IMG/VR virus record: IMGVR_UViG_3300035670_000089
Coordinates: 33,571-97,570 of that record
Strand: one strand, 5' to 3'
Source of the DNA: a virus
DNA length: 64,000 nt
The position numbers and the translations under genes were made by a program. The notes below the pieces were generated by a model, which was not told the origin of the DNA, ran no database searches, and saw only the letters and a list, made by a program, of their open reading frames with translations. This document shows, piece after piece, positions 1-32,883 of the stretch; within the stretch, counting starts at the first letter, position 1; every line of letters starts with the position of its first letter.

Positions 1-3000
1 TAGGGAAATTAGGAGTGATCGGTAAAAATAATCCACCTACATCCTTTTCATTACTACGGAAAGGAGTTCTAGCTAGGGTGTAGGAGCCATCGGGAAGAGG
101 ACGATGACTCCCAGCGACATCACGATTTCCTCTCTGATGCTCTGGACGCCCACTAACTGCGTCTACAGCACCTACCAACTTACCATTCTTCCACATCTGA
201 AGAGAGTAAATAGGAGACCCATGTTGCGTCTTTCTATTGGTGGGTACTAAAGTCACCAAACTTGGGAACAACTTCGTGTCTAAGTCCAACCTCTGGTCGT
301 ATCGTCTTGTCTGCGTTTGAGATGTCTGTCGTGAATTTGTTCTCTGCTGCTGCTTAGGTTGTTGAGGTTTAGATCGTTGTTGCTTCTGTTTCTTAGATTG
401 AGGGGTACTTAAAACGCGGTAAGACATATTTCTTATCTCACCCTGTTCGATAGGAGCTATCTTCTCAAAAGCCCCTGCAGATAAGTCAAACATTCTACGC
501 GGAGTAAGCGGACCGTTATCGTTAACCCGTACGACAACACTCTTTCCGTTATCGTCATTACGGATTTCTATCATCGTTCCGTAGGGGAACATCGGACGAC
601 CGTTTACCAATTTAGCCGCAACAGTCATAGCGGTGGGATCCATCTTCTCACCTGTGGCTGTGCCTTTACCAGCGAAGCCGTCTCCTCTACCGTAGTAGCT
701 TGCTCTCTTATCAGTCTTTATCCAAGCAGGGCCGGAAGACTTCTGCTGTTTAGGTTGACTTTGAGGCGGTGTACTCTTACCCGGGGGTGAAGGAATTGGG
801 GTTACTGGAATGTTAGGAGCAAAAGCTTCTTTAGGTCTACTCTGTTGAGACGCTGGAGCGGCATCTTGGAATCTATAGGTTCCAGGTTGCATACCAGCAC
901 CATGGAAAAATTCGTATACCGCTTCCCCTTTTGCGTTATATCCAATAATTTGTTGTCCCGAACGACCTTGTTTACCTACAGTGAAATATCCTCCGGGAAT
1001 AACCGGAATAATGTAGTTAACGTTGGCACCCCCATCTGTACTGGATGTTTTAGCCTTACCGGTATACCTAGCTTTACCTTTAATAGGGACATAAAAGTCC
1101 ATCGCAAAACGAGAACTATGTCCCCTATGTGCAACCTGCGCCGCGCGTATTTTCCTTAATTTCTCTTTAAAACTATCGGTAGAGCGGTAGACCACACCTC
1201 CTACAGCCCTATTAGAAAATTCTATTCTTCTCCCTTCCGCTTCATAACCTCGGGCAACCGCGTCCATTAACGCGACTCTCTGTTCATCAGACACCCCACC
1301 ATAAATCTTAAAGTCAATATGATAAGGGTCACCTCCGCCCCCGTGTATAGTCTTCATTGGAGTTTTATACGCGGAGCCATTACTTACTAAACCACCAACT
1401 GCTCCTCTAGAAGTACTGACCGAAGTCTGTTCCGCCATACGCTGAGATTGAGAACCACCTTTAGCAGTGTTCTTAGGAGCAGGGGGCGGAGTTTGAGGTT
1501 GTTTAACCTCTACGTTGGGCTTACCTCCTAGAAGAACAAAACCCACGTAAGGTCTAGAGTCGGTGTGAGCACCATTAATAATAGTCTCGAAGTGAAGGTG
1601 CGGTCCGGTAGAACCACCCGTAGATCCAACTTGACCTATAGCAGAGCCTGCCTTCAAGGTAGACCCTACTTTTAAGAAAGCTTGGCCTCGCATATGCATG
1701 ACTCTAAACTTCATGCCATTACCCGCATCTAATTCAGCCCAATACCCAGCGCCGCCCTCTTGATACCCTACTTTAGTGACAACCGTATCTTTCGTGAAGG
1801 AGATAAACATCCCATCGACGCCTTTCCCGCCAACTGAAGCAACATCTACCCCGCGGTGCATCTTCCGCTTACCGGATATAGGATGAACCCGCATCCCATA
1901 CCCCGAATTAATATCTGAAGCTTTAACCTGGGTAGCTCCTTTTACTTGTACTCCGTCGGGAGAAGCTTCACTCCACATACCCCCTTTATCAAACACAAAA
2001 TTCCCGCCACTCTCGGCATACCGCTGTCGAGTCGCGATTAAAGCCTCGATAGACTTCTCATAGGAGGTACTATGTCTATTTCCTCCAACACTGTCGTAAG
2101 CGCCCCGTCCGGATTTACCGTATTCAATCGAGGCCCACTCTAAAGCTAAAGCTTTCTGTGCCGCAACGATATCATCACTCTGTCCCGTTATATACTTCCA
2201 GATAGCGGGGCGTTTCCATTGGAGTAAAGATACCGCCAACCGCATTTGAGTGTCTTCATTAAACGGAGTATTCGGGTCTATACCCGTATTCTTAACCGCC
2301 CCGGCTAAAGTAGACGGAATAAATTGATACCGCCCTACCGCGAATACTTTTCCTTTACTCTGCGCCTCCATTATCTCCGCTAAAGTGGTCTCTTGTACCC
2401 TCTTACCGAAGACAGACTCCCAACTACTATTCATAGAGTCTCCGGCTTTGCCTCGGTTAAAGGAACCCCAGTCTCCCTCTCCCGCCGAAATCATATTCAA
2501 GATGTCTGCAAACGTACCCCGGACATCCCCTTGGATAAGACCCATGAAGTCATTACCTGCTCGGAAAGCCGCTTGCATTCCGCCCGCAATCCGATCCGCT
2601 ACCCCCTTAAAGAGTTTGGTCTTCGCTTCGTAAATAAATCTACTTGCTCCTGTTACCGCTTTCCACGCTAATCCGAAGAAGTCGAGAATACTCCGCCACG
2701 GCCCTTTCTCTCCTTTCAGTTTGTCCTCATATAACTTATACTCCTCCGCAAATGTAGACTTCTGCTTCTTCGCGTCTTGAGCCGCTTTATTTACCTTCTC
2801 TTTATCCTTACTACTCTTCTCCTCCTTCTCCAACTTGTTGACCTTACTAGGAAGTTTTACCTTAGTCTCTTTCTGTAATGAGGTCTCTTTAGACAACACC
2901 CCAGATAATAATTGCAGCGCGGGGTCGTTCGCCGGAGTATAAATAGTCTTATCCCCCAGCGCACCAGAAGTAACTCCGCTTCCTACTCCACTAACTCCTC

Positions 3001-6000
3001 CACCCACCGAACTAAGAGTTCTACCGCGTTGGGTCTGTACCCGTAGTCCAGACTGTTCTACAACCTTACGAGAAGTAAACGAGTTTCTCTTTTCAGCTTC
3101 AGTACTACGAAGGACAGCCAGAGAACCTACATACATCGCGGTGCCCACACCGAAACCCATCGAGAGCATTTGCTTCTGCTCTTCCCAGTCTTTCTGTTCC
3201 TCCGCCGTCCGTTTCCTCTTTAACCACCACTTCTCATACGCCTTACCCCCAACATCCAAGGCTTGATTAGTAAGACTATAGATTCCATAAGCCATCAAAG
3301 CCACACTACCTAAAGTCCCTAAGGTAGCTATAGCCGCGGCGCTTGAAGCGGCCATAGCGCCTAACCCCGCCATGGCAGCCCCAAAGGCTAAGCCTCCGAG
3401 AATACTCATACCAAAGTTCGTCGCTGTTTCTCCTGCGGACTTCCCACTTAATATATCGTCCGCTAACTGTAAACCGGTACCGAGAAGAGCCATAGCGCCG
3501 CCTTTACCTTTAAGGCCAAACTTCCCGGTGTCAGTCTTACCTACTCCAAACGTCCCTTCGACAATACCGCGCATACTAAACTCAGCGCGTAGTCCTTGCC
3601 CAAATCGTCCGAAGAATCCAGCTTGGCCTCCAACACCTACATTCCCAAACCGCGTATCCAGCTTGGAACCCCAAGTCTCTAACTTACCGCTACCTTCCCA
3701 TACTCCTCTCCCTAAATTACTAGCAACCGTCTTTACTCCACTAACAGCTTTATCCGCCGCGCCTTTAGTCTTATCGATAATGGTGTCTAAGATAAGACCC
3801 TGGATATCTATACCCTGCGCGGTACCTCTACGAACGTTACTCCACCGCTCTCTACGCCCCGCTGCTTTAGATTGTTTTTGTACCCGTACAAATCCCCCCG
3901 GAGCTTTCTTTCTTTGTGGGGGTTTAAAGCCCATTTCTACTTGTACGTCGAAGCCCGCGGCTTTCATCATGCGGTTATATGCAGCTTCAAAACCTTTATC
4001 CGGAGCTTCATGTGTATGAAGTCCTTTACCCACACTATTAACAGGGAACTCTTCATAAACCTCAGCCGCCGCGTTATACGCGCTAAGTTCATCTATAAAG
4101 CCGCCTGTAAGTTTACGGAACAGCCGGTCATCTTCAATACTTAATTGCCCAGTCTCGGCTCTCTCCGCTAATTTATTTATTTGGGAGACTACATCCTGAT
4201 TAGGTCTAGTGTAATTAGTTCCCTCTACCGTTTGTACGCCTAGAACCCCAACCGCATAGTGGTGGGAAGAAGATAGAGCGCCTCTATATACGTATTGCCG
4301 GCGCTGTTTACTCTCTAGACTTACTTCAATAAAATCACTACGCAACTTATTTGTAAGAAGCGTCTCTTTTAGAAAACTTACATACTCTTTAGCGCTATCA
4401 AAGAAATCTGTTTTAGAGGTATACCTAGTGTTATACGCGTGAGCCTGTTCATGCACAAGCGTGTCTAGAATATCCAACGAAGTATCACCACGCGCGAGAT
4501 TAACACTAACTACATGTCTTCGTGGGTCATAGTACCCTTTATATGTAGATTTAGGGTCGCGTACAATCTCTAAAGTTGGAGCCTTCTCATGGGGGAACAT
4601 CCGCTCAATCTGTTCGTTTGCGAATCTTATCTCCTCCTCCTGCATAAAGGAATCTCCGCGGAAAACCATATCTGGCCTTTCCTCAAAATAGAACGAGGGT
4701 CCATTCCATAACCTATCCCACAACCCAACTTTTTGTTTTCTAACCCCGGCATTGCTTAAATCTACTCTTTGAGTGGCGGCCTCCCCTTTCAAGTTTTGAA
4801 TATCGTTAGATTTTTGTAACGCGTTTAGCCTCTCATTGATATAATCCGCTTGAGCTAACTCTCTCGCAACTTTAGCTTCAACTTCTCCTGTGTTAGGCAC
4901 TAAATCTGTATTTAAGGTCTCGTTGGCGCTCTGTCTTAATTTAGCCTCACGTTCTCTCAGAGAATCAAAACCATCTTCCCAAAGAAGGTCGTCATCTACA
5001 GACTCAATAAATATTCTGGCGCTGCGGGATGCATCAGCCCCCGCGCGTAAGTCTTGGAGCATCCCAGCTTTACCCGCATAGACTAAATTGTGGTCTATAG
5101 GGCGTAAAGATTCAGAGGGAGGTTTAGAAGTCTCTGCATCCGGCTTAGATTGCGGCGTTGGTTTAGTTGGGGGTAAGGGCGGAGGTGTTGGTGTTGGTTT
5201 AGTTGGAGGTAGAGGTGGAGGTGTTGGTTTAGATGATTCCACCGTGGGTTTAGATACGGGTCCGGGACTCTCGGCTGTCGGTGTAGTCGGAGTTGGGGAC
5301 TTACCGGAGCGTAAGTCTTCAAGTTCTTTATGTTTTGCCGCAAGCTCCGCTTCCTTACGCGCAATCTCCTCTTCCCGATCTTTAAATTTATCGTGAGAAC
5401 TCTTCTGCTTCTCTCTATATTTCGCCTCAATCATCTCCTCTTCAGATAATGCCGGAGTAGGAGGAGTAGGAGGAGTAGGAGGAGTAAGAGGAGTCGGAGG
5501 TTTAGATTCTAATTCTGCTCGTTTGCGAGCGGCTTCGGCTTCAACGGCTTCTCTCTGTTGTTGCGTCTCATTTTGAAGCTGTCTCTTCTTAGCTTTAGCT
5601 TCATCTTCTATTTGTTTTAGCTCTGGAGGAATAATCTGCTCCTTCGCCGCTATAACCGCCGCGCGTTCAGCTACTATACCTAAACGCTCGTTCTTGCTTA
5701 AAGTTCGCCCCGTCCTCTTGTCTTTAGACAACCTTAAAGTTAAGTCTTGCTCTATAAGAGTAAGTTGCTCGTAACTATATTGCCCACTTGTATACTTATC
5801 TATTTGGTCCGAACGGTATTGTAATACCGCCGGCGCAAATGACGGTTTAGACGACGTAGTCTGAGGTTTAGGGGTAGGCTTCGGAGTAGGTTTAGGAGTA
5901 GGTTTAGGAGTAGGGGCAGGGGTAGGTTTAGGGGTAGGTTTAGGGGTAGGTTTAGGGGGTTCCCCCAAAATCGTTTTAGCGGTTTCTACTCGTTCTTCCG

Positions 6001-9000
6001 CCGCTTCCTCGTTTAACTTTTGGGTATTCTCTGCAGAAGTCTCCGGGGGTTGTGGTTTAGGTGTGGGTTTAGGTGTAGGTTTAGCTGGCTCTACCGGTTC
6101 CGCTGTTTCAACCGGGGTCTTCGTTTCTTCAGGAGATTGAGGTGTAGCGCCCATCTCTTCCTTAATATTTGTCTTAGCTTTCTCCTGAGTTTGCTTTAGG
6201 TCTCTCTCTAACTTCCTATTCCAGAGCGACCGCCCTAACTTATACGCACCGTAAAGTCCACCCGCCAGAAGAGCGTGTCCCCCAATGGTGGCGTATAACT
6301 CATCATGATTCTTCTCTTTATTAAATAAGTAAGCTTCCTGCGAGATAACAGAACCTAAATAGTTACCGATATACCCGCCGATAATACCGCCGACTATCGC
6401 TCCCGGAAATCCTCCAAGTAATCCTCCAATGACCGCCCCCACACCCGCGCCCACAAGCGCACCGGTTAAACCACCTTTACTAGCGGAGTCAGCGTATTTG
6501 ACGTACTCCGCCTGCGAAGTGATATTAGCGCGCTGTAATCGCTGCCAATATCTCTGTCCTTGACCAAACCCACCAGATACTTCAGACGCAAAGGAACCAA
6601 TTATGTTTAGCGCGGTACCTATACGGGGTACCACACTTAACCCTGTAAATATCCCCGTGACGTTACGTTTGTTGATGTCTACAATTTCTTGGCGGGGACT
6701 GGTTTTGTAATGTCGAAGGTTTTCCGCGGCTTGAGAATTACTGTGCAGAGTAAATGGAGCGGCTACAACCGCAATCGCGGCGTCAAAAGCTCTACTCGTT
6801 ACAATTCTGAATATCTGTCCGCTTAAGGAACGCCCCGCTACTTCTTTAGTAGCTTCCCTACTCGCCGCTCGGTACAGTTCCTTCTGGAACATTCTATTCC
6901 GTGCTGCCTTTGAAAAAGCTTGTCTACCCCCACCGCGCGCCATTCTCTCTGCGGTAAGTCTCGCGGCTTCTCTATACACCCGCGCCTGAGTACTTCGTAC
7001 CGAGGATTTTACGCCCTCTTCGACTAAATCGTCTCCAGCGCTAGCTACACCTCTATAAAGAGAAGAGTACCGAGTACCTTTTAAACGGGAGGGACTAACT
7101 CTTGAAGCGTAAAGCCTGGGTAGTCTTGATGTTTTTGCCGACGCCGGACTAAACCTTAAAGAATCTCCCTTTAAGAAAGGAGACCGCATAAATAAGTCTC
7201 TGGTCTTATTCACTTCGTTAAGATATCTCCAACCAGAGACCGCCCCGGTAGTTACACCGTAACCTATACCCGCGACAGCTAACCCGAAGACTCCAAACTC
7301 CACAACGTCTCTAGTTGTAACTTGGGACTCATCCGCCGTTCCTTCATCCGCATAGGCTGAGGGGGGCATCAGCATATCCCCTATACCCGGTAAAGCAGAT
7401 ATAGTTTTACCTATTAAAGACCGACGTCGGGTACCCCGCTCGGAATACATTCTATCCCCCAACCAATTCCCTACGAATTCCCCAACACTATTTTGGAGAA
7501 TCATCGTTGTGGAGATCTGTTTAGCCCAACTAAGGTTTATCTTACCTCGGGTGACTCCACTGAGAATCAGACTACCTAGGTTTACAGATGCACCTATAGC
7601 GGCGCCCGCTACATCTCTACTCGCGGCTCTATATTCTTGAATATCACTATAGCCGCCCAGACTATTAAGTCTCCACATAGAAAAAGACATTAGAGCGGTG
7701 TCTACCCCTGTGGACATCAATGCATTTATAGTTCCTCTACCTAAACTCCTAAGAGGTCTAAAAGCAGAACTGTCATACGCTTTCTTAGCCGCCATTGGTA
7801 GCGACTCGGATAAGAAGGTTGTAAGTCCATTCCTAAAAGGTTGACTCCCGAATAAGAATTCGTGTACCCCTCCCCATATTTTATGGAATAGAGATTGTTG
7901 TGGCCGAGGGGGTAACGGTGTAGTCGGGGAGGTTGGTGGAATATTAGGCGCAGAACCTCTTCTAAATGTAAAGTTCGCAAGAGAACTTACAAGACCGCCG
8001 ATTCCTTTACTAATACCCTTCAGTATTGGTAAGCCCACAGTCCGGAGTCCAAAAGGATCGAATAAGTCTTCCACTTCACGGAAGATAATATTGTTCTGCC
8101 GAACCGGAACATAATTCGGATTAAGGATATTCCGAGCGTCTTGTACAATTCCCCTAAAGGAGAATTTAAAACCATACCGTATAGCGTCGGTGGCTCCATA
8201 AGCTCCTCCACCGATAAACTGCCACTTTCTTCTTTCGTCTCTATACTCTTCAGTGGTTTGGTCTTCGTCTTTATGTAGGAAATTATATAAGAATCCTGTT
8301 AAGAAATACCCTTTCAGAAAACCCGTACCCGCACCCAACGCCATACGAGAGGACGCTCTACCAATACGAACACGCTCCGGGGCTAAGTCTTTAAATGTGC
8401 GCCCAGCCTCTCTGGCCTTAGCAGCCTCTCGGGCATAGTTCATCATTCTTCTTTCATACCCGCGGCGAATACCGCCCTTGATGCCCATATACGTCACCGA
8501 TGTAGCACCCGAAACCCCCAAGGATAATTTTGTATAATCCTCGTCGGACATACCGGTGGCGGACGTAACTAAAGACCTCCCGTACTGCATTAAGCCAAAG
8601 GTAGCCCCTCCGACTAATGCTCCTTTGCCTAAATATTCAAATACAAAAGGAAGAGCAGATCTGCCTATCCCTTTATATTTCAGCATGTCATTTAACTGAG
8701 CATTATTTATATTGACCAACTCTTCCGCAGTCAATCCACTAAGTTCCTCAAACTTCTTAATGTTTTGGTTAGCGAAATAAGTGTCTACTACATCTAACCC
8801 AGACTTAATCTGTCTGGTTAACGGACCCATAAACGAATTGGCAAAACTAGCCGCCCCAGACATTCCCCAAATAAAGGGGTCAATCTGTCGATACTTACGT
8901 CTCTCCCTATCCGATAGAGAGTTACTAAATATAGCGGTGAGAACCCCGTAAGTAATCAGTCCGGTTAGGGCTCCCCGGGATACTCTATTATTCCCAATGC

Positions 9001-12000
9001 CCGACAGCACTCCTTTAAAGGCATCTCCAATTCTTTCGCCGGTGGATACAATAGCCCCACCCATTCGCATAATGCCAGAGGTGTCTATAGATGCCCCTTT
9101 AAAGGGGGCAGTAATATTACCGTATATAGTGGACGCTGTGTCTCTAAGAACATTAGGAGTCTCTCGAATAGCGTAAGCCGTGTTATCCGCCACCTTCGCT
9201 AGAGTATAGGATGTAGAACCTACACTCTCCTGCGGTATTTTATTAGTTACATACGAACCAACCACCGCCGTCCCTATAGAGCCAAACGGAGTTTCGTTTA
9301 TACGTTGTCGGTAGGGTCTACCATGCAACATATCTCCTAATTGATTCCGTCTCAATGCGGCTAAGGTTAACAGTTGAGACATATACGGCTTAGGTCCAAA
9401 AGGAGCTAAGACCCGGAATGCATATCCTTTTGTATCGAAATAACGCTGGTAGGTTGTGTATTCGCCAAAGCCATTAATCCTCCCCTGTAGGAATGGATTA
9501 ACTAGTTCATCGTCGAGGCCCGCTTGTGTAGAAGCTGCGCGGGCATAACGTTCTCTATTCTTCTCGGCGATATAATCGCTGATGTCTCTCTCATTCGTCT
9601 CCCAAGGTACGGGACCTTGGAAGGTTATCAACCCTTTACTATACTTCGTGTCTCTATTCCACCAAGCTTCGCTGGTCTCAGGAAGTACAGCGTTCGTTAT
9701 ATAGGCAAGAGGAGTCCCCTCAAACTTACGGTACAAAGAGGTAATAGTAGGGTCTAGCGCTCTAGCAGGTAATCCTAAGACTTGCAACGTCTCATTCAAC
9801 ACCGGGACTCCGACTAAAGTATTAATAATCGGAGCCAGGACACGGTTGGCGAGAGGTTTAAATATATGTCGGTCTAAATGCCGAACGCCCTTAGTAATAC
9901 TATCTGTGATTCTTCCTTCATTAAACTTCTGGTCAAGGAAATAACCACCGAGGATAGCCCCCGTTGCTACCCAACCAGCAGGGGTAAACATACTCTTCGC
10001 GGCGAAGGAGAGTAATGTCATACCTATACCGGTCTCAATTATCATATTCGCCGCGGCTTCCGACGCCCTCATTCTCTCCATCGGAGATTTCTCCGACGCG
10101 GCCTGAGTAACCATACTGTAGACTGGGTAGAACGTAGCGACCTCCATCGCTTTACCCAGGAGTCCAAAGGCTCCGGTAGCGGCTTCTCGAAGACTACCGA
10201 GATACCCTACTCTAGCGACTCTATCTGTAGTACTCATACTAAATAGAGAAGCATTCCGATTATTTAAAAGCCGCCGTGCAATTTCCCGTTGTTCCCTCGG
10301 GGATATTTTCTTACGGGGAAGACGTTGAGGTACATGAGACGCCCCCTCGTCTTGTATCGCGGAATTTAGGATAGCATCCTGTATATCCAGAATCCGCTCT
10401 GCAATATTCTGAATAATGTTGTACTTATTCTGCGGCGTAACATGCGTGGAGTTTATCTCGTCAGTAATAAGAGAGCTAAGTTTCCCAAACTTATCCTCAA
10501 TAAGATCGTCCACTGCTGCATCTATACCTGTAGCAGACGAACTGTCAATAAAGAATTCTAGGAGGCGTTTCGTAGAACCGTCGTTAACGTCGATAGAAGC
10601 ATCCAGGAGTATATCTCGTAGCTCCCGCTTAATCCTACCGGTGAGGTCTTCAACCTCTTTTCCAATATCGACTCCCGGTTTTTTCTTACTCTCGACGAGA
10701 GTATCTATCTGTTTTACAAACTCACTCTCTCTATCAGGGAGGTCCTCGACATAAGAGGACAACCTACTGTTTAAATCTACAAACTGATCTTGTATCTTAC
10801 GAGCGTTTTGAGTACTAACCGTTAAAGTTTCGCTACCTAACCGCAATCTACGCGCACCTTTAGTTTGGCGTTGCCGACCCTGAACTTGGAAGTTATCCCC
10901 AGAACTTACAATAGTAAAGTTAGAGTTTTGTATACTCGCAATCCGTTCAGCGACTTTCTCCTCCATACCTCGAATCGTTCCACCTTCCCCAAAAGCGGCA
11001 AACGCGGACACCGTTGTCATCAATGAGAATGTCGTCGCGGCGGTAACCGCAGTAAATGTCAAAGCGGTGGTCAAGGTCATAATTACCGTAGACCCTACAA
11101 AAGGCACCGTCTTCTGTTCTACTTCCCCCTTAGAGTTTGTCGAACTATACTCCCTCAGTTTGGGGAAGTAAGCCATCTTTAAGGGCTCAATGAAATAACT
11201 GAAGATATTTCCCCGTTGGGCTTGTTTACGAGATTCCATAAGACCTGCGAAGTCCATCGTAGGTTTCTCAAAACTCCCTGTGGTTAAGAACCTTCCCCCC
11301 ACATTAAAGGTGTTAAGAAATAAATCCAGTACTCCAGGTTGTTGAGATTCCGCGCCGGGTACATATTGAAATATTCCATCCAGGTCGTACTTAGTCCAAT
11401 CCACACTCTTCAGACCTTCGACGAGAACATCCCCCACCTTAAGGTTTTCGATACGCCCCGAGCGCGCCATCTCTAAGAAGTAGTCTATAAACAGTTCAGA
11501 ACCCCGCTGTCTAGCGGCATGTTGGGCGTAGAATTCTCTAACCTCTGCCGCCATGGCTAATTCTCTACTAGAGCCACCTAAAGCTTGGACTTCGCTAGCG
11601 GTAGTTTTACCGTATAAACGAGATGGAGTTTTCTTAGGAGTAGCTCCTCGAATCTTTGCCACCGCTTTATCGGAGTATTCTCCTTTAGTAGAGAGGATAG
11701 CAGAAAGGACTTTAGCGTCATCAGCGGAGATGGACTCCATGTTCATGTATACCTTGGACTGGGATATATCCGCCCCCGGAGATTGAGCCTGTAGATACGC
11801 ACGCCAGGTCTCAGTTCCTTCCGACATACCCCAAGCACCGAAGATATTCGCAAAAGGATTAGGGTTGTCTTTATACATCCCCGTCATCTTCCGAATATCG
11901 CCGAACAACCCCAAGGTAAATAAATTAAGAAGATTAGGGATAAAGTTCTCTTTATTCGCGGGTGCGAATGGACTAGAGTACCCTAGAGCTCTTCTAGCCG

Positions 12001-15000
12001 CACTCATTCGTTTGAAGTCTGAAGAACTTTCAGTACCACTAAAGACTTTAAGAGGTCCCTCAAAGAATCCTCTTACGAATCTATTCCCTTCTCCTTCTGC
12101 TCTACTGTCGGAGAACATGGTGTTATAAACGAGTCCGGCTAGACCAACTAGAGCCCCAGCTCTCACTATAGACATCCCTGCCAAACGCATTCTTATAGCG
12201 TTAGAGCGGACTAGTTTAGGTTCCGCATATCTCAAAACATCGTCTACCTGTTGGAATAACTCCTTACCTTTCCCGGGTAGTATTTTACCGGCTTCAACTT
12301 CATTAAAAGTCCCGCGGGCATATCTATTTACCAACTCAGGCCATTTCTCCGCATCTAAGTCTCTGAGTACTGAGTCTCCATGTGCCGCCTTCGCCAGTAG
12401 ATTTAGAGCTTCATCCTGATAAGTAGCGTACATTTGACGCTGTGTCCCTCTTAAACTAAAGGGACTTATTCCGTATGAAGGGGGTGTATCTACAAAAGAT
12501 TTAGCGGAATCAAAGACCCGGCCTGAGTAAAGAGCAGTAGAGATAACGGTAGTCAAACCTACCGCCGCACCGATTCTATACTCATTCGCTTGACGTAAAG
12601 CCTCGTAGGGATTCGCCGTAGAGCCGACATTACTCAACCCCGCCGCTTCGTAATAAGAACCTAAAGAACTGTATTCTGAACCTTTACCGACAGCCCCAAA
12701 CCCTATAGCCGCTGCGAGTAGTAGTGGAGTCATTTTGCGGAAACTAGGTCCTAAGAACCGAGCGTCCTTAACGTCGTAGAATCGAGTTGATGTCCCAATA
12801 GAGCGCATCAATAGATTCGGCATAACAGTTTGAGGAACTTGAGACCACCGCGCTAGTTTCTCGTACTGCTCAACTCCTAATTGGAGGTAACCTAGTGCGC
12901 TTCTTGCGCCTTCTAGTTCCTTCTTAACCGAAGGAATACTACTTAAATGTGCCCAAGCACCACTTTGCTGTACACCCTGCCATATATTCCCGGCTACTCC
13001 GGCTGCTCCAACAAAGACTAGAGAACGAGTGAAGTACGAGTCTTTATCAAAGACCGGGGTAAAACTATCAAATAGATTACCTTGTAGATATGACTCTCTA
13101 GACTCGCGGGCTAACTCCTTAGTATCTCTAGTATCCTCTATACCCCCGGGATAGAGTCTCTGATACCGTTTCTCCGCCACCTGTTCCGCTCGAGTAGTTA
13201 CAGAATTAATTCGTAAAGATAGAGGATAACTAGGAATAGAACCCATCCCTAAAATAGGTAGGAACTGGAAGCCGGCGCTGAAAGCGTATTTATTCCCCTG
13301 AGGGTCTGTTTTACTCACCAGGGTTATTTGAAAGATTGGGTTAGGTTGTTGATGGGCCCAGGTATACCCAACACGTTCTTTACCTTTATCCGCCTGTAAC
13401 GCCCGGTCCGCCAACAGCCCTAACAGCGCAATATTAGCTAAACCACTCTTAGGTATATAACGAGTATTGAGAATATCTTGGTCTTCAACGTCTTCCCCCG
13501 TACGCTCTTTAGCTAATTTTTTATATTTATCCACAGTGCGGCGGATAGAAGAGGACATAGTGGTGGAGAATACAATATCCTCATCGGTCTTCAATCCTCC
13601 GTCATCCCCGTAGTCTTTCTTGAACACATTAGCAAGAGCCGCGGCGGTATTAAAACCACCTTGAAGGACAAACAAGGAAGCAATAGCTCCCACGGTGGCC
13701 ATACCAAAGCTAAAGCGAGTAACATTGCGCCCCTTCGTAAAGCGAGTGTTTATACTCTCTAACTGCTGCACTACAGCTTTATTCGATTCATCATTAAATA
13801 ACTTCTTAAACTCAGCGTCACTACGAGCAAAGGTAGATAGCCTGTCGTCTATCCGTAAAGAATAGAACATCTTACCCGAGGCTACACCAGCACCTAACAC
13901 TGTGGGTACTTTTAGCCAATCTGGGACTACCCCGGTGTACTGCACTTGCGAAAAATCAGCACTGCCGTCTTTAACGGTGTCCTTCGCATTTATACCGTAT
14001 AGCATTTGGGATATCAAATCTTGACCCCGGTTCTGCATTAGGTATTTATCTAACACACGGTCTACCGCTAATACAGCACCCACGGAAGCTAAAGCTTTTC
14101 TTCCGATAGCCGCGGCATGTACTGATTTGATGGTGTTACTAAGACCCTTATGTCGATAAGCGGAGAGTTGTTGGTGTCTTGAGAATAGATCGTCGTACTC
14201 AGTCAATACCTGCTGTATTCTATTCAAAGCAGGACTACTCGCGGTATCGTCGGCTAGTTGAGATAATAGATCACTATTACTCATTATCGCGGCGATAGCC
14301 GGTTCTTGATGTCTTAACTGTTTCCCTAAGTGGAGTATTTCGCCAGACTCTTTGAGGGTTTTAACTAAACCGTGCTCGTACATCCGGCGGGCGGTCAACG
14401 TTATATTCGACGATAACTCGATTAGTCCTTGGAAACCCGGGCCCAACGCCCCCTTTAAGGAGAGTACCTGATTGGGTAGAGGACCTTGATTCGCTTCCAC
14501 TAAGTCCGGTGTCCACGTTCCCGTAATCCCTCTAGCTTTTCTTACTCCCGGAAGATAATATATAGGATTGAACGCGATATATCTCGAGATATCATCCAAG
14601 TGCCGCGCGATATCCTCTAAACGTTGTTTCCCGAAGTTCATGGGTTCAATAGAGGAGAAGGTCTCCGACTTATACCTGATATATATAGGTTGAGACAAGA
14701 CTTCTCGGAGGCCTTTTACAGAGTTCTCAAAACTAAGTTGGGTCTCTACATCCCCTACAATCGATATAGACCGTAAGATCGGTTCAATAACATTCTCAAA
14801 GTTACTGTCGTCGAGTAGACGTAGTCTATTTACTACGTTTAAAGAACCGTATTGATTCGGAGCGGGGTCTCTATATAAACCAGACTCTAAGTCCATAACC
14901 CCGTCAGTAACCCCAAAGGTCTGTTTTTTAATGCGGTGGACTTCTTCTGCTATCTCCGTCGTCGCAACATCTAACTCTCCTTTCTTGACGGCATAGTTCC

Positions 15001-17347
15001 CTATACGATCTATTTCCCTCCGGAAAGTCTCCACACCCTCATCGGCGGGGTCTCCAGATTCCATTAAATTCTTTACAAACTGCAACGCAGTTTTATTATC
15101 CGAGGCATCGATAAACTCCTTAACTGCCCCGGCATCATTCATCTTACCGAGGATGGAGTATTCGAGCATAGCGTCAATTACGTTAGACCCGATTAAACCC
15201 TTGGCCGTAAATTTATCTGCAACAGCATTAAGAGAGTAGAACAAATCGCGGTGTTGCATCGGGAGTTGTCTTGCTCTAGCCCAACCAAAGAAACCCTTGT
15301 TAGTGGACGAGGACATAACTCTCTCCATACCGGCAGTCTCTAACTCCGCTTTAAAGATTGAGAGAGAGTGACTAAATCCAAAGTAGAAGAGTAAGGCGTT
15401 AGTAGTAGCACTAGCCGTAGAGTAGGAGGACGATATGAGAGTCTCGAAGAATCCCCTCTTCTCTTTACTCTCGTATTGAGATTTATGTAATCCTTGAGGG
15501 TCGTCCTCCAAAGCTTTACCTTTTTCCGCAGCGTAAAGCTGCTTCATCGTGTAATACCCTGTCAAATAATCTAAGGTACGCCCAAAGAGAGTTAGACCTG
15601 TACCCACCAAGCCGCGGTCTTTCTCGTAAGCCTCGGGGAATTTCTCGTTTATAAGTGCGCCCCATCCTCGTAGAGTACCCGGGCTAAGTTGTCTATCTAG
15701 AGAAGCATAAAGGGCATAGCGGAATTTATCCCCAGGCTCAGTGACATCATCTTTAGTTTTACCGGTAAGGCTATATATATAATCTTGGTATGGAGTGGGG
15801 CGTTCTCCTTTAAACATCGAGAAGAACCTATCGTCTATAGATGTAGGAAGATAAATCGTCCCGGTGGTCTCTCTTGATATTGTGTCCCCCATATCGGATT
15901 TATCGGTATACTTAGGCCTAAATAATGTGGAGAACAGTCCTCTATCATACGCAGTGGTTTTTGAGGATAGTTGTCGCCCAGAGAACAGTGGGAAGTTCCT
16001 CTCGTTAAGTTCCTTATTCTTAGTATTTAAATCAGGGTCAGGAGTATCCGTAGGCAATAAGGTCTTAGTTATACCTTGCGCTTGCCACCTCTCAATTTCT
16101 TTAATACCAGCTTTCGAGATATTAGGGTCGCGTATAACCACCCCAATCTCGGTCACAAAGTTATTACTACTTTTACTGAAGTTGTGGGAAGTGATATAGG
16201 ACCAGACATCGCTAAATATAGATTTAGCGTGAAGCATGACGTTAGCCTGCTCATCGGTTAACCTCACTTCTATCTTCGGACTTGAGTTCACCAAAGACAT
16301 TAGTAAGTCCGATTGTATCTCTGGACTAGTAGCGGCGGTTTTCCCCGCTGGATTATTAGACACAATTACTATCTTATTTATATCCGGGTCTTTACTCTTA
16401 GCAACCACCTCTTTAAATAACTCTTTATCGGTAGCCGCGAATAGAGTCATATATAAGTTACCTTTGGCAGACTGCACTAGCTCTTTATGTCTCTGCTGCG
16501 ATTCTCCACCTTTACCGCCAATAATTACATTAGGAAGATTCGGCGGAGTCTCCTTAGGGTCTTGAGCCGATTTGTTTATATACTGTATAGCCTGCTTTAT
16601 CTGCTTAACGACTGCATTATCTTCTATAACAGCGGAGAAGTTCAACTGTTTCGTCGTATTACTTTTTGTTTCCTGGGCTTCACCTAAGTTAGCAGTGGAT
16701 ATTAAGGCGACTTCATCAGAACGAGAGGTAGCCGCCGCTTTAGCGTGTCCGTGAGTATTGTCACCCTGAGTTCTACTCTCATAAGTTTTTCCCGCGTATA
16801 CACCCCTTATATTAGACCGTTCGGTTATCCTACCGCTAAGCATCCGACCTAAAGTAGGGGTATCCATAATTGCTAAAGACGCCGCAGTGGCAGCAGCGGC
16901 TCCCGCTAGTAGACCCGCTGCCCGAGCTACTCTATTTTTACCTAAGTTATACCCAACTACAGCACCGCCTGCAGCCGCTAAAACAGTAGGGACATAATTA
17001 TCATTAAGGGGAGTAACATCCGAGTAGACGTTGAGTTTACCTTTTAGGCCGTAGTCCTCTATATTAGCGCCCAAACTAACCGACATAAAGTTGCCGCTCT
17101 TTATATTTTCGGGAGAAGGGTCTTCAGCCAAGGAGTTTAATCTACGGTAAAGTCTATCCTCAAGACGTCGACTCTGCGTCGACATACTATAGTACGAACC
17201 GATTAAGCGGTCTTTCTTGTTATGCACTTTATCTAAGAAAGAAGAATAACCCTCTTCAGTCTTAGAACCAGAATAGAGAGTTACCTCCGACAATCCGGAG
17301 TAGGTAATACCTTCTTCAGTTCTGTTTACCTTGGTGCCCAAAACCAT
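1..17347 (-). CDS. Giant multidomain virion protein (tape-measure/ejection-like), >=5782 aa, 3' end beyond the window: tandem PLD, hydrophobic helices, HExxH peptidase, lysozyme, M23, M23-like, RlpA-like and L,D-transpeptidase-like domains
   Basis: ATG at 17347 follows AGGGG just after the stop of the upstream gene (MVLGTKVNRTEEG...). Manual translation of about 16100-17347, 4150-4750 and most of 1-2530 stays open in one frame. It is probably absent from the ORF track only because no stop is reached in the window. Motifs: HAK/ISTANL, HAKSIFSD/TSHNFS, HEQAH, AVGRYQFIPSTL/EWAS, HRGVD/HLHFE, ASYYG/RVNDNGP/FDLS, AVSG/PLPDGSY. Confidence 0.88.
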   Translation of the reverse strand, partial: MVLGTKVNRTEEGITYSGLSEVTLYSGSKTEEGYSSFLDKVHNKKDRLIGSYYSMSTQSRRLEDRLYRRLNSLAEDPSPENIKSGNFMSVSLGANIEDYGLKGKLNVYSDVTPLNDNYVPTVLAAAGGAVVGYNLGKNRVARAAGLLAGAAAATAASLAIMDTPTLGRMLSGRITERSNIRGVYAGKTYESRTQGDNTHGHAKAAATSRSDEVALISTANLGEAQETKSNTTKQLNFSAVIEDNAVVKQIKQAIQYINKSAQDPKETPPNLPNVIIGGKGGESQQRHKELVQSAKGNLYMTLFAATDKELFKEVVAKSKDPDINKIVIVSNNPAGKTAATSPEIQSDLLMSLVNSSPKIEVRLTDEQANVMLHAKSIFSDVWSYITSHNFSKSSNNFVTEIGVVIRDPNISKAGIKEIERWQAQGITKTLLPTDTPDPDLNTKNKELNERNFPLFSGRQLSSKTTAYDRGLFSTLFRPKYTDKSDMGDTISRETTGTIYLPTSIDDRFFSMFKGERPTPYQDYIYSLTGKTKDDVTEPGDKFRYALYASLDRQLSPGTLRGWGALINEKFPEAYEKDRGLVGTGLTLFGRTLDYLTGYYTMKQLYAAEKGKALEDDPQGLHKSQYESKEKRGFFETLISSSYSTASATTNALLFYFGFSHSLSIFKAELETAGMERVMSSSTNKGFFGWARARQLPMQHRDLFYSLNAVADKFTAKGLIGSNVIDAMLEYSILGKMNDAGAVKEFIDASDNKTALQFVKNLMESGDPADEGVETFRREIDRIGNYAVKKGELDVATTEIAEEVHRIKKQTFGVTDGVMDLESGLYRDPAPNQYGSLNVVNRLRLLDDSNFENVIEPILRSISIVGDVETQLSFENSVKGLREVLSQPIYIRYKSETFSSIEPMNFGKQRLEDIARHLDDISRYIAFNPIYYLPGVRKARGITGTWTPDLVEANQGPLPNQVLSLKGALGPGFQGLIELSSNITLTARRMYEHGLVKTLKESGEILHLGKQLRHQEPAIAAIMSNSDLLSQLADDTASSPALNRIQQVLTEYDDLFSRHQQLSAYRHKGLSNTIKSVHAAAIGRKALASVGAVLAVDRVLDKYLMQNRGQDLISQMLYGINAKDTVKDGSADFSQVQYTGVVPDWLKVPTVLGAGVASGKMFYSLRIDDRLSTFARSDAEFKKLFNDESNKAVVQQLESINTRFTKGRNVTRFSFGMATVGAIASLFVLQGGFNTAAALANVFKKDYGDDGGLKTDEDIVFSTTMSSSIRRTVDKYKKLAKERTGEDVEDQDILNTRYIPKSGLANIALLGLLADRALQADKGKERVGYTWAHQQPNPIFQITLVSKTDPQGNKYAFSAGFQFLPILGMGSIPSYPLSLRINSVTTRAEQVAEKRYQRLYPGGIEDTRDTKELARESRESYLQGNLFDSFTPVFDKDSYFTRSLVFVGAAGVAGNIWQGVQQSGAWAHLSSIPSVKKELEGARSALGYLQLGVEQYEKLARWSQVPQTVMPNLLMRSIGTSTRFYDVKDARFLGPSFRKMTPLLLAAAIGFGAVGKGSEYSSLGSYYEAAGLSNVGSTANPYEALRQANEYRIGAAVGLTTVISTALYSGRVFDSAKSFVDTPPSYGISPFSLRGTQRQMYATYQDEALNLLAKAAHGDSVLRDLDAEKWPELVNRYARGTFNEVEAGKILPGKGKELFQQVDDVLRYAEPKLVRSNAIRMRLAGMSIVRAGALVGLAGLVYNTMFSDSRAEGEGNRFVRGFFEGPLKVFSGTESSSDFKRMSAARRALGYSSPFAPANKENFIPNLLNLFTLGLFGDIRKMTGMYKDNPNPFANIFGAWGMSEGTETWRAYLQAQSPGADISQSKVYMNMESISADDAKVLSAILSTKGEYSDKAVAKIRGATPKKTPSRLYGKTTASEVQALGGSSRELAMAAEVREFYAQHAARQRGSELFIDYFLEMARSGRIENLKVGDVLVEGLKSVDWTKYDLDGIFQYVPGAESQQPGVLDLFLNTFNVGGRFLTTGSFEKPTMDFAGLMESRKQAQRGNIFSYFIEPLKMAYFPKLREYSSTNSKGEVEQKTVPFVGSTVIMTLTTALTFTAVTAATTFSLMTTVSAFAAFGEGGTIRGMEEKVAERIASIQNSNFTIVSSGDNFQVQGRQRQTKGARRLRLGSETLTVSTQNARKIQDQFVDLNSRLSSYVEDLPDRESEFVKQIDTLVESKKKPGVDIGKEVEDLTGRIKRELRDILLDASIDVNDGSTKRLLEFFIDSSSATGIDAAVDDLIEDKFGKLSSLITDEINSTHVTPQNKYNIIQNIAERILDIQDAILNSAIQDEGASHVPQRLPRKKISPREQREIARRLLNNRNASLFSMSTTDRVARVGYLGSLREAATGAFGLLGKAMEVATFYPVYSMVTQAASEKSPMERMRASEAAANMIIETGIGMTLLSFAAKSMFTPAGWVATGAILGGYFLDQKFNEGRITDSITKGVRHLDRHIFKPLANRVLAPIINTLVGVPVLNETLQVLGLPARALDPTITSLYRKFEGTPLAYITNAVLPETSEAWWNRDTKYSKGLITFQGPVPWETNERDISDYIAEKNRERYARAASTQAGLDDELVNPFLQGRINGFGEYTTYQRYFDTKGYAFRVLAPFGPKPYMSQLLTLAALRRNQLGDMLHGRPYRQRINETPFGSIGTAVVGSYVTNKIPQESVGSTSYTLAKVADNTAYAIRETPNVLRDTASTIYGNITAPFKGASIDTSGIMRMGGAIVSTGERIGDAFKGVLSGIGNNRVSRGALTGLITYGVLTAIFSNSLSDRERRKYRQIDPFIWGMSGAASFANSFMGPLTRQIKSGLDVVDTYFANQNIKKFEELSGLTAEELVNINNAQLNDMLKYKGIGRSALPFVFEYLGKGALVGGATFGLMQYGRSLVTSATGMSDEDYTKLSLGVSGATSVTYMGIKGGIRRGYERRMMNYAREAAKAREAGRTFKDLAPERVRIGRASSRMALGAGTGFLKGYFLTGFLYNFLHKDEDQTTEEYRDERRKWQFIGGGAYGATDAIRYGFKFSFRGIVQDARNILNPNYVPVRQNNIIFREVEDLFDPFGLRTVGLPILKGISKGIGGLVSSLANFTFRRGSAPNIPPTSPTTPLPPRPQQSLFHKIWGGVHEFLFGSQPFRNGLTTFLSESLPMAAKKAYDSSAFRPLRSLGRGTINALMSTGVDTALMSFSMWRLNSLGGYSDIQEYRAASRDVAGAAIGASVNLGSLILSGVTRGKINLSWAKQISTTMILQNSVGEFVGNWLGDRMYSERGTRRRSLIGKTISALPGIGDMLMPPSAYADEGTADESQVTTRDVVEFGVFGLAVAGIGYGVTTGAVSGWRYLNEVNKTRDLFMRSPFLKGDSLRFSPASAKTSRLPRLYASRVSPSRLKGTRYSSLYRGVASAGDDLVEEGVKSSVRSTQARVYREAARLTAERMARGGGRQAFSKAARNRMFQKELYRAASREATKEVAGRSLSGQIFRIVTSRAFDAAIAVVAAPFTLHSNSQAAENLRHYKTSPRQEIVDINKRNVTGIFTGLSVVPRIGTALNIIGSFASEVSGGFGQGQRYWQRLQRANITSQAEYVKYADSASKGGLTGALVGAGVGAVIGGLLGGFPGAIVGGIIGGYIGNYLGSVISQEAYLFNKEKNHDELYATIGGHALLAGGLYGAYKLGRSLWNRKLERDLKQTQEKAKTNIKEEMGATPQSPEETKTPVETAEPVEPAKPTPKPTPKPQPPETSAENTQKLNEEAAEERVETAKTILGEPPKPTPKPTPKPTPAPTPKPTPKPTPKPTPKPQTTSSKPSFAPAVLQYRSDQIDKYTSGQYSYEQLTLIEQDLTLRLSKDKRTGRTLSKNERLGIVAERAAVIAAKEQIIPPELKQIEDEAKAKKRQLQNETQQQREAVEAEAARKRAELESKPPTPLTPPTPPTPPTPALSEEEMIEAKYREKQKSSHDKFKDREEEIARKEAELAAKHKELEDLRSGKSPTPTTPTAESPGPVSKPTVESSKPTPPPLPPTKPTPTPPPLPPTKPTPQSKPDAETSKPPSESLRPIDHNLVYAGKAGMLQDLRAGADASRSARIFIESVDDDLLWEDGFDSLREREAKLRQSANETLNTDLVPNTGEVEAKVARELAQADYINERLNALQKSNDIQNLKGEAATQRVDLSNAGVRKQKVGLWDRLWNGPSFYFEERPDMVFRGDSFMQEEEIRFANEQIERMFPHEKAPTLEIVRDPKSTYKGYYDPRRHVVSVNLARGDTSLDILDTLVHEQAHAYNTRYTSKTDFFDSAKEYVSFLKETLLTNKLRSDFIEVSLESKQRRQYVYRGALSSSHHYAVGVLGVQTVEGTNYTRPNQDVVSQINKLAERAETGQLSIEDDRLFRKLTGGFIDELSAYNAAAEVYEEFPVNSVGKGLHTHEAPDKGFEAAYNRMMKAAGFDVQVEMGFKPPQRKKAPGGFVRVQKQSKAAGRRERWSNVRRGTAQGIDIQGLILDTIIDKTKGAADKAVSGVKTVASNLGRGVWEGSGKLETWGSKLDTRFGNVGVGGQAGFFGRFGQGLRAEFSMRGIVEGTFGVGKTDTGKFGLKGKGGAMALLGTGLQLADDILSGKSAGETATNFGMSILGGLAFGAAMAGLGAMAASSAAAIATLGTLGSVALMAYGIYSLTNQALDVGGKAYEKWWLKRKRTAEEQKDWEEQKQMLSMGFGVGTAMYVGSLAVLRSTEAEKRNSFTSRKVVEQSGLRVQTQRGRTLSSVGGGVSGVGSGVTSGALGDKTIYTPANDPALQLLSGVLSKETSLQKETKVKLPSKVNKLEKEEKSSKDKEKVNKAAQDAKKQKSTFAEEYKLYEDKLKGEKGPWRSILDFFGLAWKAVTGASRFIYEAKTKLFKGVADRIAGGMQAAFRAGNDFMGLIQGDVRGTFADILNMISAGEGDWGSFNRGKAGDSMNSSWESVFGKRVQETTLAEIMEAQSKGKVFAVGRYQFIPSTLAGAVKNTGIDPNTPFNEDTQMRLAVSLLQWKRPAIWKYITGQSDDIVAAQKALALEWASIEYGKSGRGAYDSVGGNRHSTSYEKSIEALIATRQRYAESGGNFVFDKGGMWSEASPDGVQVKGATQVKASDINSGYGMRVHPISGKRKMHRGVDVASVGGKGVDGMFISFTKDTVVTKVGYQEGGAGYWAELDAGNGMKFRVMHMRGQAFLKVGSTLKAGSAIGQVGSTGGSTGPHLHFETIINGAHTDSRPYVGFVLLGGKPNVEVKQPQTPPPAPKNTAKGGSQSQRMAEQTSVSTSRGAVGGLVSNGSAYKTPMKTIHGGGGDPYHIDFKIYGGVSDEQRVALMDAVARGYEAEGRRIEFSNRAVGGVVYRSTDSFKEKLRKIRAAQVAHRGHSSRFAMDFYVPIKGKARYTGKAKTSSTDGGANVNYIIPVIPGGYFTVGKQGRSGQQIIGYNAKGEAVYEFFHGAGMQPGTYRFQDAAPASQQSRPKEAFAPNIPVTPIPSPPGKSTPPQSQPKQQKSSGPAWIKTDKRASYYGRGDGFAGKGTATGEKMDPTAMTVAAKLVNGRPMFPYGTMIEIRNDDNGKSVVVRVNDNGPLTPRRMFDLSAGAFEKIAPIEQGEIRNMSYRVLSTPQSKKQKQQRSKPQQPKQQQRTNSRQTSQTQTRRYDQRLDLDTKLFPSLVTLVPTNRKTQHGSPIYSLQMWKNGKLVGAVDAVSGRPEHQRGNRDVAGSHRPLPDGSYTLARTPFRSNEKDVGGLFLPITPNFP
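5150..6090 (-). repeat. Pro/Thr-rich coding tandem repeats (PKPT, TPP) forming linkers in the giant protein
   Basis: 12-nt GGTTTAGGGGTA-type units at about 5865-5960 and 9-nt GGAGTAGGA units at about 5453-5500. More Pro-rich tracts lie at 5150-5300 and 6045-6090. All are in frame with the giant ORF. Confidence 0.85.
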
Positions 17348-17361
17348 ATACTGTCACCCCT

Positions 17362-31011: not shown

Positions 31012-31024
31012 AATATATCCTCGG

Positions 31025-32374: not shown

Positions 32375-32380
32375 CCTCTA

Positions 32381-32875: not shown

Positions 32876-32883
32876 ACGTTCAA

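Follow-up and report, generated by a model that had tools for sequence, protein, structure and literature searches.

The giant gene and its integrity

The subject of this work is a giant gene that fills the first 17.3 kb of a 64,000-nucleotide stretch of viral DNA (the window; positions 33,571 to 97,570 of IMG/VR record IMGVR_UViG_3300035670_000089). The source is a 97,570-bp viral contig with an estimated completeness of 66%, of which the window is bases 33571-97570; the samples in which it occurs bear the label subsurface or soil metagenome, and no RNA data set is listed among them. A single long late operon occupies the minus strand of the window, and the genes of the other side converge on it. 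Coordinates are those of the window unless marked as contig or L002 positions, and residue numbers follow the full 6,999-residue protein, which we call the giant. Its parts, from the N-terminus to the C-terminus, are as follows.

2..17347, minus strand: giant open reading frame (ORF), window part, residues 1-5782 (open-ended ORF; no indels in four samples; 8/8 single-nucleotide polymorphisms synonymous)
15938..16960, minus strand: tandem HKD phospholipase-D-superfamily (PLD) module, residues ~130-470 (Pfam PLDc_2, conserved motifs)
9248..15937, minus strand: family-defining conserved core, residues ~471-2700 (phmmer, collinear BLASTP, invariant columns, AlphaFold2 [AF2])
6548..9247, minus strand: lineage-specific variable region, residues ~2701-3600 (nearly no family matches; hydropathy scan)
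6338..6490, minus strand: glycine-zipper hydrophobic hairpin, residues ~3620-3670 (Pfam, PHROG, hydropathy)
4898..6100, minus strand: Pro/Lys/Glu-rich linkers (TPKP and PTPP repeats) and charged helical spacers, residues ~3750-4150 (translation)
3908..4750, minus strand: zincin-like domain 1, residues ~4200-4480 (HEQAH, an HExxH motif, at 4299)
3098..3898, minus strand: Gly/Ala-rich membrane block, residues ~4484-4750 (identity, composition, hydropathy)
2018..2512, minus strand: lysozyme-like, possibly lambda-R-type, muralytic domain, residues ~4946-5110 (PHROG, tblastn)
1409..1963, minus strand: M23 (LytM-type) metallopeptidase, residues ~5129-5313 (HRGVD and HLH motifs)
848..1390, minus strand: family-specific beta-rich domain, residues ~5320-5500 (invariant His and Asp, AF2 fold)
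431..706, minus strand: RlpA-like double-psi beta-barrel (DPBB), residues 5548-5639 (Pfam DPBB_1)
2..205, minus strand: YkuD domain 1 (L,D-transpeptidase fold; residues 5715-5830), first half only, with the catalytic Cys5802 beyond the window (Pfam)
Beyond the window, minus strand, in this order: ASAGVSDM (5873), zincin 2 (HEYTH at 5985), YkuD 2 (Cys6432), ASAGVSDM (6484), repeats and a unique tail (sequence)

When open ends are allowed, the first 17.3 kb contain a sole long ORF (2..17347, minus strand, 5,782 residues) that is free of stops within the window. An initial annotation of this DNA had proposed such a frame, and the ORF list, the translation and the extension of the frame all bear it out; its estimate of at least 5,782 residues was right about the long single frame but understated the size. 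The frame runs on for 3.65 kb past the window edge, adding 1,217 residues at contig 29921-33570 (L002:2922-6571, minus strand), and stops at contig 29918. The full ORF (contig 29918-50917) encodes 6,999 residues with a mass of 767.9 kDa and an isoelectric point of 9.4. The ATG at 17347 is the earliest start option, with an upstream stop just 2 codons away; it lies 14 nt past the stop codon of the preceding gene and has AGGGG ahead of it. Inspection of the translation revealed no N-terminal signal sequence.

The giant gene is real. Chance cannot yield 7,000 stop-free codons, so the frame is not random, and independent assemblies encode collinear single ORFs of 3.2-7.9 thousand residues, so it is not an assembly fusion; in four of these relatives (P0002, P0009, P0010 and P0011) the N-terminal core and the C-terminal blocks lie on one chain. 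Logan contigs from four samples of one study span window positions 1-17400 with zero insertions or deletions, and 8 of 8 population variant sites in the frame are synonymous. The notion that the long frame is an artefact fusing two or more genes can point to the in-frame TPKP-coding repeat at 5864-5958, where Logan contigs break. Such breaks are confined to in-frame tandem repeats (period 9/12/36 nt) there and at 5450-5493, and in all four samples the flanking contigs share a k-1 overlap inside the 5864-5958 repeat. Together with the absence of indels, the synonymous variants and the collinear single ORFs elsewhere, this leaves the artefact explanation with a negligible chance of being correct. 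The same three lines of evidence dispose of in-frame stops or frameshifts in the middle (about 4750-16100), which the initial annotation had set as the observation that would split the frame into several genes.

Architecture of the giant

The first 130 residues are lineage-specific, and the tandem PLD module follows. Its two half-sites read H201-x-K203...STAN and H373-x-K375...SHN, it scores 48.3 bits against Pfam PLDc_2 (cut-off 27), and both HxK...(S/T)xN motifs are kept in 15 family relatives. The closest NCBIfam model is the PLD of DISARM DrmC type, and in family member P0008 a staphylococcal nuclease (SNase; E=5.8e-20) occupies the position of the PLD. Because SNase substitutes for it in P0008 and because of its DrmC-like affinity, the tandem-HKD head is more likely to be a nuclease than a membrane lipase.

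The core of about 2,200 residues carries most of what defines the family. An alignment of 18 members contains 40 invariant columns with dense Gly/Pro/Gln/aromatic motifs, and the distance between conserved motifs is fairly steady across the family, at 717-787 residues. An AF2 model of core residues 620-1700 made from 11 sequences is largely helical at low confidence (pLDDT, the predicted local distance difference test, of 49), with beta-hairpins at the most conserved motif, around residues 1328-1381; conserved hydrophobic helices are also predicted. The core gave zero matches in Pfam, PHROG, NCBIfam and PDB, an ESM Atlas search with it returned nothing usable, and PDB sequence and profile searches with the first 4,300 residues and with the core alignment found no matches.

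Hydrophobic segments recur towards the middle of the chain. A hydropathy scan places three stretches in the variable region (at 2792, 3246 and 3351) and about 11 uncharged hydrophobic stretches of at least 20 residues in the whole giant. The glycine-zipper region includes an uncharged stretch of 46 residues, and comparable zippers are present in relatives. Gly-zipper Pfam families match the hairpin at a sub-threshold E~1e-3, and PHROG phrog_167, annotated as "tape measure," matches residues 3543-3730 (E=9e-6). The linker region (3750-4150) is 16% Pro, and its DNA contains in-frame tandem repeats. Zincin 1 aligns with zincin 2 across the HExxH motif (E=0.001); its match to Pfam SprT-like is weak (E=0.19), and zincin 2 reaches 23.7 bits, slightly below the cut-off of 25.6 for the same family. 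Between zincin 1 and the wall enzymes, the Gly/Ala-rich block (30% Gly+Ala, with uncharged stretches at 4641-4697 and 4726-4746) is the best-conserved segment of one subfamily, with 43-54% identity to P0002, P0009, P0010 and P0011.

The C-terminal part is a series of cell-wall enzyme-like domains. The lysozyme-like domain matches phrog_37890 (1.9e-28) and phrog_30077, both PHROG families without known function, and is 40-47% identical by tblastn to cyanophage "lysozyme-like" and structural proteins. Its match to Pfam SLT is weak (E=0.076), a PDB sequence search with it gave no match, and its AGEG...GRYQF motifs are presumably lambda R-like. The M23 domain is well supported by Pfam PF01551 (55.8 bits, cut-off 28.7), by PDB M23 chains down to 7.6e-13 and by MepM/ShyC-like NCBIfam models. 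The RlpA-like barrel scores 57.7 bits against Pfam DPBB_1 (PF03330; cut-off 28.8), matches NCBIfam rlpA TIGR00413 at 2.7e-17, under that model's full-length cut-off, and has PDB matches to 4avr and to the hub of cyanophage A-1(L) (8kea). YkuD 1 reaches 26.2 bits against Pfam PF03734 (cut-off 23.4). The second copy has no Pfam match of its own but is 48% identical to the first, with the motifs IHWDD...GCIG and IHTDE...GCIG; a self-BLAST of the whole protein missed this internal duplication, and a direct comparison of module against module revealed it.

The domain at residues 5320-5500, within window 728-1405 (minus strand), stands apart. It is 35-51% identical across 8 family members and its AF2 model is good (pLDDT 74, core >90), yet Foldseek found no similar structure and searches found no stand-alone homologue. 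With VIA-align the highest Z was 4.2, and LytM-like rows appeared weakly, at Z~3. Assignment as a LAS/M15-type peptidase was considered and was not confirmed by Foldseek (none) or VIA-align (weak). Another of the weak VIA-align rows (Z 3.7) is the baseplate hub of cyanophage A-1(L) (8kea), in its C-terminal part; this hub likewise bears a DPBB domain.

Beyond the second YkuD, six 14-residue tandem repeats (residues 6560-6680) lead into the unique tail. The eight-residue ASAGVSDM follows each YkuD, at residues 5873-5880 (L002:6300-6323, minus strand) and 6484-6491 (L002:4470-4493, minus strand), and a longer form of it, ...ASAGVSDMGMPI..., is found again in family member P0009, where it lies at a domain boundary. 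Judged from its sequence context, ASAGVSDM / ...ASAGVSDMGMPI... is a candidate, as yet unproven, zincin cleavage site. A MuF or portal-type head anchor had no Pfam, PHROG or NCBIfam match, although distant versions could escape these searches.

Much of the layout given in the initial annotation holds against these results. The N-to-C order of the domains agrees with the translation, the tandem PLD has both its motifs and its Pfam score, and the Pro linkers, the Gly-zipper segment and the HExxH motif at 4299 are all present. Its helical middle is mostly helical in the AF2 model, but at low confidence, and where it saw many Gly/Ala-rich hydrophobic segments, the Gly-zipper is there but the uncharged stretches are just the 11 or so counted above. 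Of its five wall enzymes, M23, RlpA-DPBB and YkuD lie above Pfam cut-offs and the lysozyme-like domain is backed by PHROG and tblastn, but residues 5320-5500 have no assignable fold, and the "M23-like" label given to them could not be confirmed.

A rare family with variable C-terminal ends

The giant belongs to a new, rare family. An exhaustive HMMER (phmmer) search with residues 471-1670 against 1.84 billion representatives returned 29 proteins, with lengths of 3,244-7,866 residues except for three short members that are probably fragments. In BLASTP maps the core (about residues 200-2700 of the giant) is collinear, whereas the C-terminal enzyme sets differ between members: P0002 ends in beta-lactamase-like, M23, VanY and DPBB domains, and others have M23 alone or a sub-threshold Hydrolase_2. 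Such variability is expected of parts that face different host walls. At the N-terminus, most members carry PLDc_2, with SNase in P0008. By its sequence, the conserved core of ~2,200 residues has no known relative outside the family.

Among 50,697 deposited phage records, the sole relative is the 4,151-residue hypothetical protein WOL31340.1 of Microcoleus phage My-WqHQDG (OR578706.1); tblastn with residues 1-3000 and 3000-4800 against these records matched only its PLD. With the giant it has in common the tandem PLD and the beginning of the core (E=1e-15 at 25% identity), and it follows, co-oriented, a ~590-residue gene and two small genes. It differs in that the PLD lies ~900 residues in, in being much shorter and in its C-terminal content, and it is annotated merely as hypothetical. 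The passages seen of the preprint describing this phage do not mention the WOL31340.1 ORF.

Exclusion of cysteine

Of the 6,999 residues of the giant only 2 are Cys, one in each YkuD GCIG motif, where ~78 would be expected at the 1.11% of the other ORFs of the contig. The 29 family representatives together comprise 144,677 residues and just 9 Cys, of which two belong to YkuD sites and the others lie within the last ~75 residues. These noncatalytic C-terminal Cys occur in P0008, P0012, P0018, P0022 and P0023, and their clustering suggests either that the extreme C-terminus has a role of its own or that constraint on it is relaxed.

As a control, we counted Cys in proteins whose ejection has been established by experiment. 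These had none (N4 virion RNA polymerase, 0/3,500; T7 gp15, 0/747; T7 gp16, 0/1,318), against 0.9-2.3% in replication and cytoplasmic enzymes and 0.5-0.9% in other virion proteins of N4 and T7. In this small control, total exclusion of Cys is thus common to the giant family and to bona fide ejected proteins. A split is also visible along the contig: the Cys content is often 2-2.9% in plus-strand genes at 1-28,400 (a nonvirion block, partly examined), falls to 0-0.8% in the virion operon and is essentially zero in two giants, the one described so far and a second one introduced below.

Position in the virion gene block

The operon runs from portal, protease/scaffold, major capsid, sheath and likely tube, through proteins without assignment, to the baseplate wedge, an 862-residue ORF and a 288-residue ORF, and ends with the HNH-containing large terminase, orf208 and, last at the 3' end, the giant. 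The following neighbours are relevant here.

17362..17988, minus strand: orf208 (208 aa), conserved partner gene directly upstream of the giant (homologue in 12/12 loci, 29-53% identity)
18041..20989, minus strand: large terminase, 982 aa, with an in-frame HNH-containing insert (PHROG terminase and HNH matches)
51825-63068, plus strand: second giant ORF, 3,747 aa, 0 Cys (open reading frame)

All 12 related loci from IMG/VR, whose contigs reach 216 kb, show the order terminase, orf208 homologue, giant, and most of them also have the wedge and the 862-residue gene upstream. The giant is therefore a fixed part of the virion gene block and, since it follows terminase and orf208 throughout, lies outside the tail module. 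Its partner orf208 had zero matches in Pfam, PHROG and NCBIfam; the Atlas gave weak leads alone, to beta-sandwich viral proteins, so that the protein probably has a beta-sandwich fold, and it could be a chaperone, adaptor or virion partner of the giant. The terminase is longer than its relatives of ~600 residues, which align on either side of residues ~625-847; this insert, to which the HNH-endonuclease matches belong, has the look of an intein or of an inserted homing-endonuclease domain. In one relative (L015), a 1,250-residue open frame stands at the terminase position.

Two further genes of the operon caught our attention. In orf515 (26636-28183, minus strand), the C-terminal half is long, Gly/Val/Leu/Asp-rich and repeat-like, and orf449 (31025-32374, minus strand) has a helical N-terminus followed by Gly-rich segments; neither has family matches. 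Either could be the real tape measure or needle protein of the phage. A third candidate for the real tape measure, orf795, was ruled out by its sequence, which is of mixed composition and contains 10 Cys.

As for the host, the closest relatives of the sheath are from Microcystis and Microcoleus phages, but an identity of 24-27% is too distant for the host to be named from it. The label "cyanophage" rests solely on this identity and on the matches of the lysozyme-like domain. A host search by a back-translated motif scan gave 8 loci, of which 0 were confirmed by tblastn.

A second giant in the same phages

The second giant had zero Pfam, PHROG and PDB matches. Its motif GDYDGD at residue ~2599 is kept as GD[YF]DGD in homologues of 3.3-5.1 thousand residues. 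Of 5 related records, 4 encode such a homologue, among them all three with a completeness of 90% or more. With this motif the second giant looks RNA-polymerase-like, resembling a virion RNA polymerase. The N-terminal regions of all five second-giant sequences contain two HxK...(S/T)xN half-sites. BLASTP and Pfam saw no link between the heads of the two giants; an hhalign profile-profile comparison aligns them (94% probability, E=1e-7) along 206 columns that take in both half-sites, and on this profile evidence we regard the two PLD heads as homologous. That the same phages encode two Cys-free giants whose heads are homologous suggests a shared route, fate or task.

Comparison with known systems

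The closest concept in the literature is that of the polyvalent proteins, which combine many unrelated enzymatic domains per polypeptide, including lysozyme-type and peptidase domains directed against peptidoglycan (Iyer et al. 2017, PMC5512222). Zincin-like metallopeptidases were proposed to process these chains, and packaging and injection were predicted for them (PMC5512222); the text of that paper does not mention tape measure, transmembrane, M23, cysteine or cyanophage. Like the polyvalent proteins, the giant has disparate domains (PLD, M23, DPBB and YkuD above Pfam cut-offs, a lysozyme-like domain by PHROG and two HExxH motifs) and is encoded among the virion genes of a portal-terminase phage. 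Unlike them, it has no MuF/portal anchor and no DNA-modification, anti-restriction or nucleotide-signalling domain detectable with Pfam or NCBIfam; two-thirds of it is a conserved helical and hydrophobic body, and it is far larger. The giant therefore fits the polyvalent class in concept, without detectable homology.

Three other systems share parts of this layout. In T7, gp14, gp15 and gp16 are membrane-inserting helical proteins that form a trans-envelope channel once ejected. The giant resembles these core proteins in the lack of Cys (gp15 and gp16) and in a muralytic domain ("internal virion protein with endolysin domain"), but has no detectable sequence similarity to them and is one 6,999-residue chain rather than three proteins; its phage also has a contractile rather than a short tail, and the giant has more enzyme types and an N-terminal PLD. 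Tape measures of the T5 Pb2 or phiKZ gp181 type have muralytic C-termini. As in these, a helical body and a hydrophobic or fusogenic segment are followed by a C-terminal M23 or lysozyme-type domain, and PHROG tape-measure families match the Gly-zipper and M23 parts of the giant. Unlike these, the giant is encoded outside the tail module, is 3-6 times as long as a plausible tail would need and adds to this layout a nuclease-like domain at the N-terminus, two zincins and two YkuD domains. Finally, the N4 virion RNA polymerase gp50 (3,500 residues) is likewise giant and fully Cys-free, and it is ejected into the host. However, gp50 is a polymerase and not a wall or membrane protein; it resembles the second giant instead, and homology was not detected.

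Proposed role of the giant and its alternatives

Based on these results, we favour, with modest confidence, the view that the giant is a virion-borne, ejected trans-envelope protein and not primarily a ruler of tail length. Its presence in the virion, its ejection, topology, processing and channel function are what we infer. In favour are its place at the end of the virion operon, the extreme avoidance of Cys, the variable C-terminal enzyme sets, the SNase in place of the PLD in P0008, the second giant with its homologous head, and a layout in which a helical body, a hydrophobic Gly-zipper and C-terminal muralytic domains follow one another as in known ejected proteins. In our scheme, the giant would be carried in the virion, delivered into the host at infection and act across the envelope, in the manner of the T7 gp14-16 ejectosome and of muralytic tape measures. 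The C-terminal third (lysozyme-like domain, M23, RlpA-type barrel and two YkuD domains) would act on the wall around the tail tip, cutting or remodelling it, while the Gly/Ala-rich hairpins and the conserved helical core would insert in membranes and form or line a passage for DNA. The same passage may be used by the co-encoded 3,747-residue RNA-polymerase-like giant. The tandem-HKD PLD would be a nuclease-type head at the N-terminus, and the two zincin domains may divide the chain into functional pieces.

A more specific form of this scheme, which we put forward tentatively and hold to be doubtful in its full detail, joins the two Cys-free giants as ejected partners. One would span the envelope and be cut by its zincins, for example at ASAGVSDM, with the wall toolkits in the periplasm, the core as conduit and the nuclease head in the cytoplasm; the other would be a single-chain RNA polymerase that uses the conduit. 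The shared PLD head might then be a common device for entry or for handling DNA ends and not simply a nuclease.

Several points weigh against an ejected trans-envelope protein. Direct virion evidence is absent, as both proteomics and a cultured relative are lacking for the clade, and PHROG, PDB and tblastn found no homology to a characterised ejection protein or tape measure beyond the generic M23 and Gly-zipper. The Cys control covers only two phages (N4 and T7), and the other virion proteins of this phage are also Cys-poor; Cys avoidance thus marks "virion or extracytoplasmic" more surely than "ejected." With a pLDDT of 49 for the core model, the helicity of the core and its insertion in membranes are weakly grounded. 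YkuD enzymes build as well as trim cross-links, so that pure wall-breaching fits less neatly. In addition, none of the genes between sheath and baseplate stood out clearly as a separate tape measure, and because no other was identified in the tail module, a partial role in the tail lumen is conceivable.

This last point leads to the alternative that the giant is a true tape measure, its helical body filling the tail tube and its enzymes sitting at the baseplate end. It is the sole protein of the window with tape-measure PHROG matches (phrog_167, and phrog_23188, 4070 and 10030 via M23), no convincing rival for the task was seen, its layout is appropriate, with a helical body free of Cys, a Gly-zipper and muralytic domains at the C-terminus, and the spacing of core motifs is fairly constant. 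We nevertheless consider this unlikely. The PHROG matches rest on generic elements; at ~0.15 nm per residue, the family lengths would imply tails of 0.5-1.2 μm, with ~330 nm for the 2,200-residue core alone; and the dense Gly/Pro/aromatic motifs and predicted beta-hairpins of the core are not those of a plain coiled coil. An N-terminal nuclease-type domain and folded enzymes cannot fit a lumen of 3-4 nm. Gene position after the terminase in 12 of 12 loci, length and motif content together make a pure tape-measure role unlikely. The initial annotation had left the choice open between tape measure and ejection protein: its tape measure is poorly supported by the same gene position and lengths, its caveat that not all of the chain can be a ruler is right in view of the family lengths, and its ejection protein with membrane, protease and wall functions is the half that we favour.

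Another explanation, to which we give slightly less weight still, places the giant outside the virion, as a late, membrane-anchored factor for lysis or envelope remodelling of the infected cell, its hydrophobic segments being holin-like and its several endolysin-type domains directed at a thick wall. The place in the late operon, the hydrophobic segments and the multiple peptidoglycan-active domains would suit such a factor, and we noticed no separate endolysin in the window, though this absence covers only part of the genome. But a lysis factor without an N-terminal signal sequence would be odd, a 768-kDa chain would be very costly for lysis, and the N-terminal nuclease and the 2,200-residue conserved core would have no role in it; the total avoidance of Cys, as in known ejected proteins, and the PLD head in common with the RNA-polymerase-like giant also speak for a different fate. 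Improbable in our view is an external virion appendage, a giant fibre or whisker whose enzymes would clear a way to the cell surface through the extracellular matrix and the DNA in it. PT-rich linkers are a typical feature of multi-enzyme proteins that work outside cells, nucleases of the PLD-Nuc and SNase kinds are usually secreted, and related phages occur in mat-forming Microcoleus communities; yet peptidoglycan is inaccessible from outside a diderm cell, the Gly-zipper and Gly/Ala hairpins would make no sense on an exposed fibre, and neither fibre-type repeats nor receptor-binding folds were detected with Pfam or PHROG.

Significance

If the ejected trans-envelope reading is true, the giant would be an extreme case of one injected protein with many jobs, a single 768-kDa chain for wall cutting, membrane passage, self-processing and nuclease action, and it would be paired with a second giant that resembles a virion RNA polymerase. 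The 2,200-residue core is a sizeable piece of protein space without a known relative, and the variable enzyme sets of the family are a natural source of peptidoglycan-active domains, including one well-folded domain without an assigned fold. The exclusion of Cys over 145,000 residues is a simple signature that could predict ejected proteins in uncultured phages. The giant thereby becomes a testable candidate for the means by which phages with contractile tails bring DNA and very large proteins across the envelope of thick-walled or mat-forming hosts.

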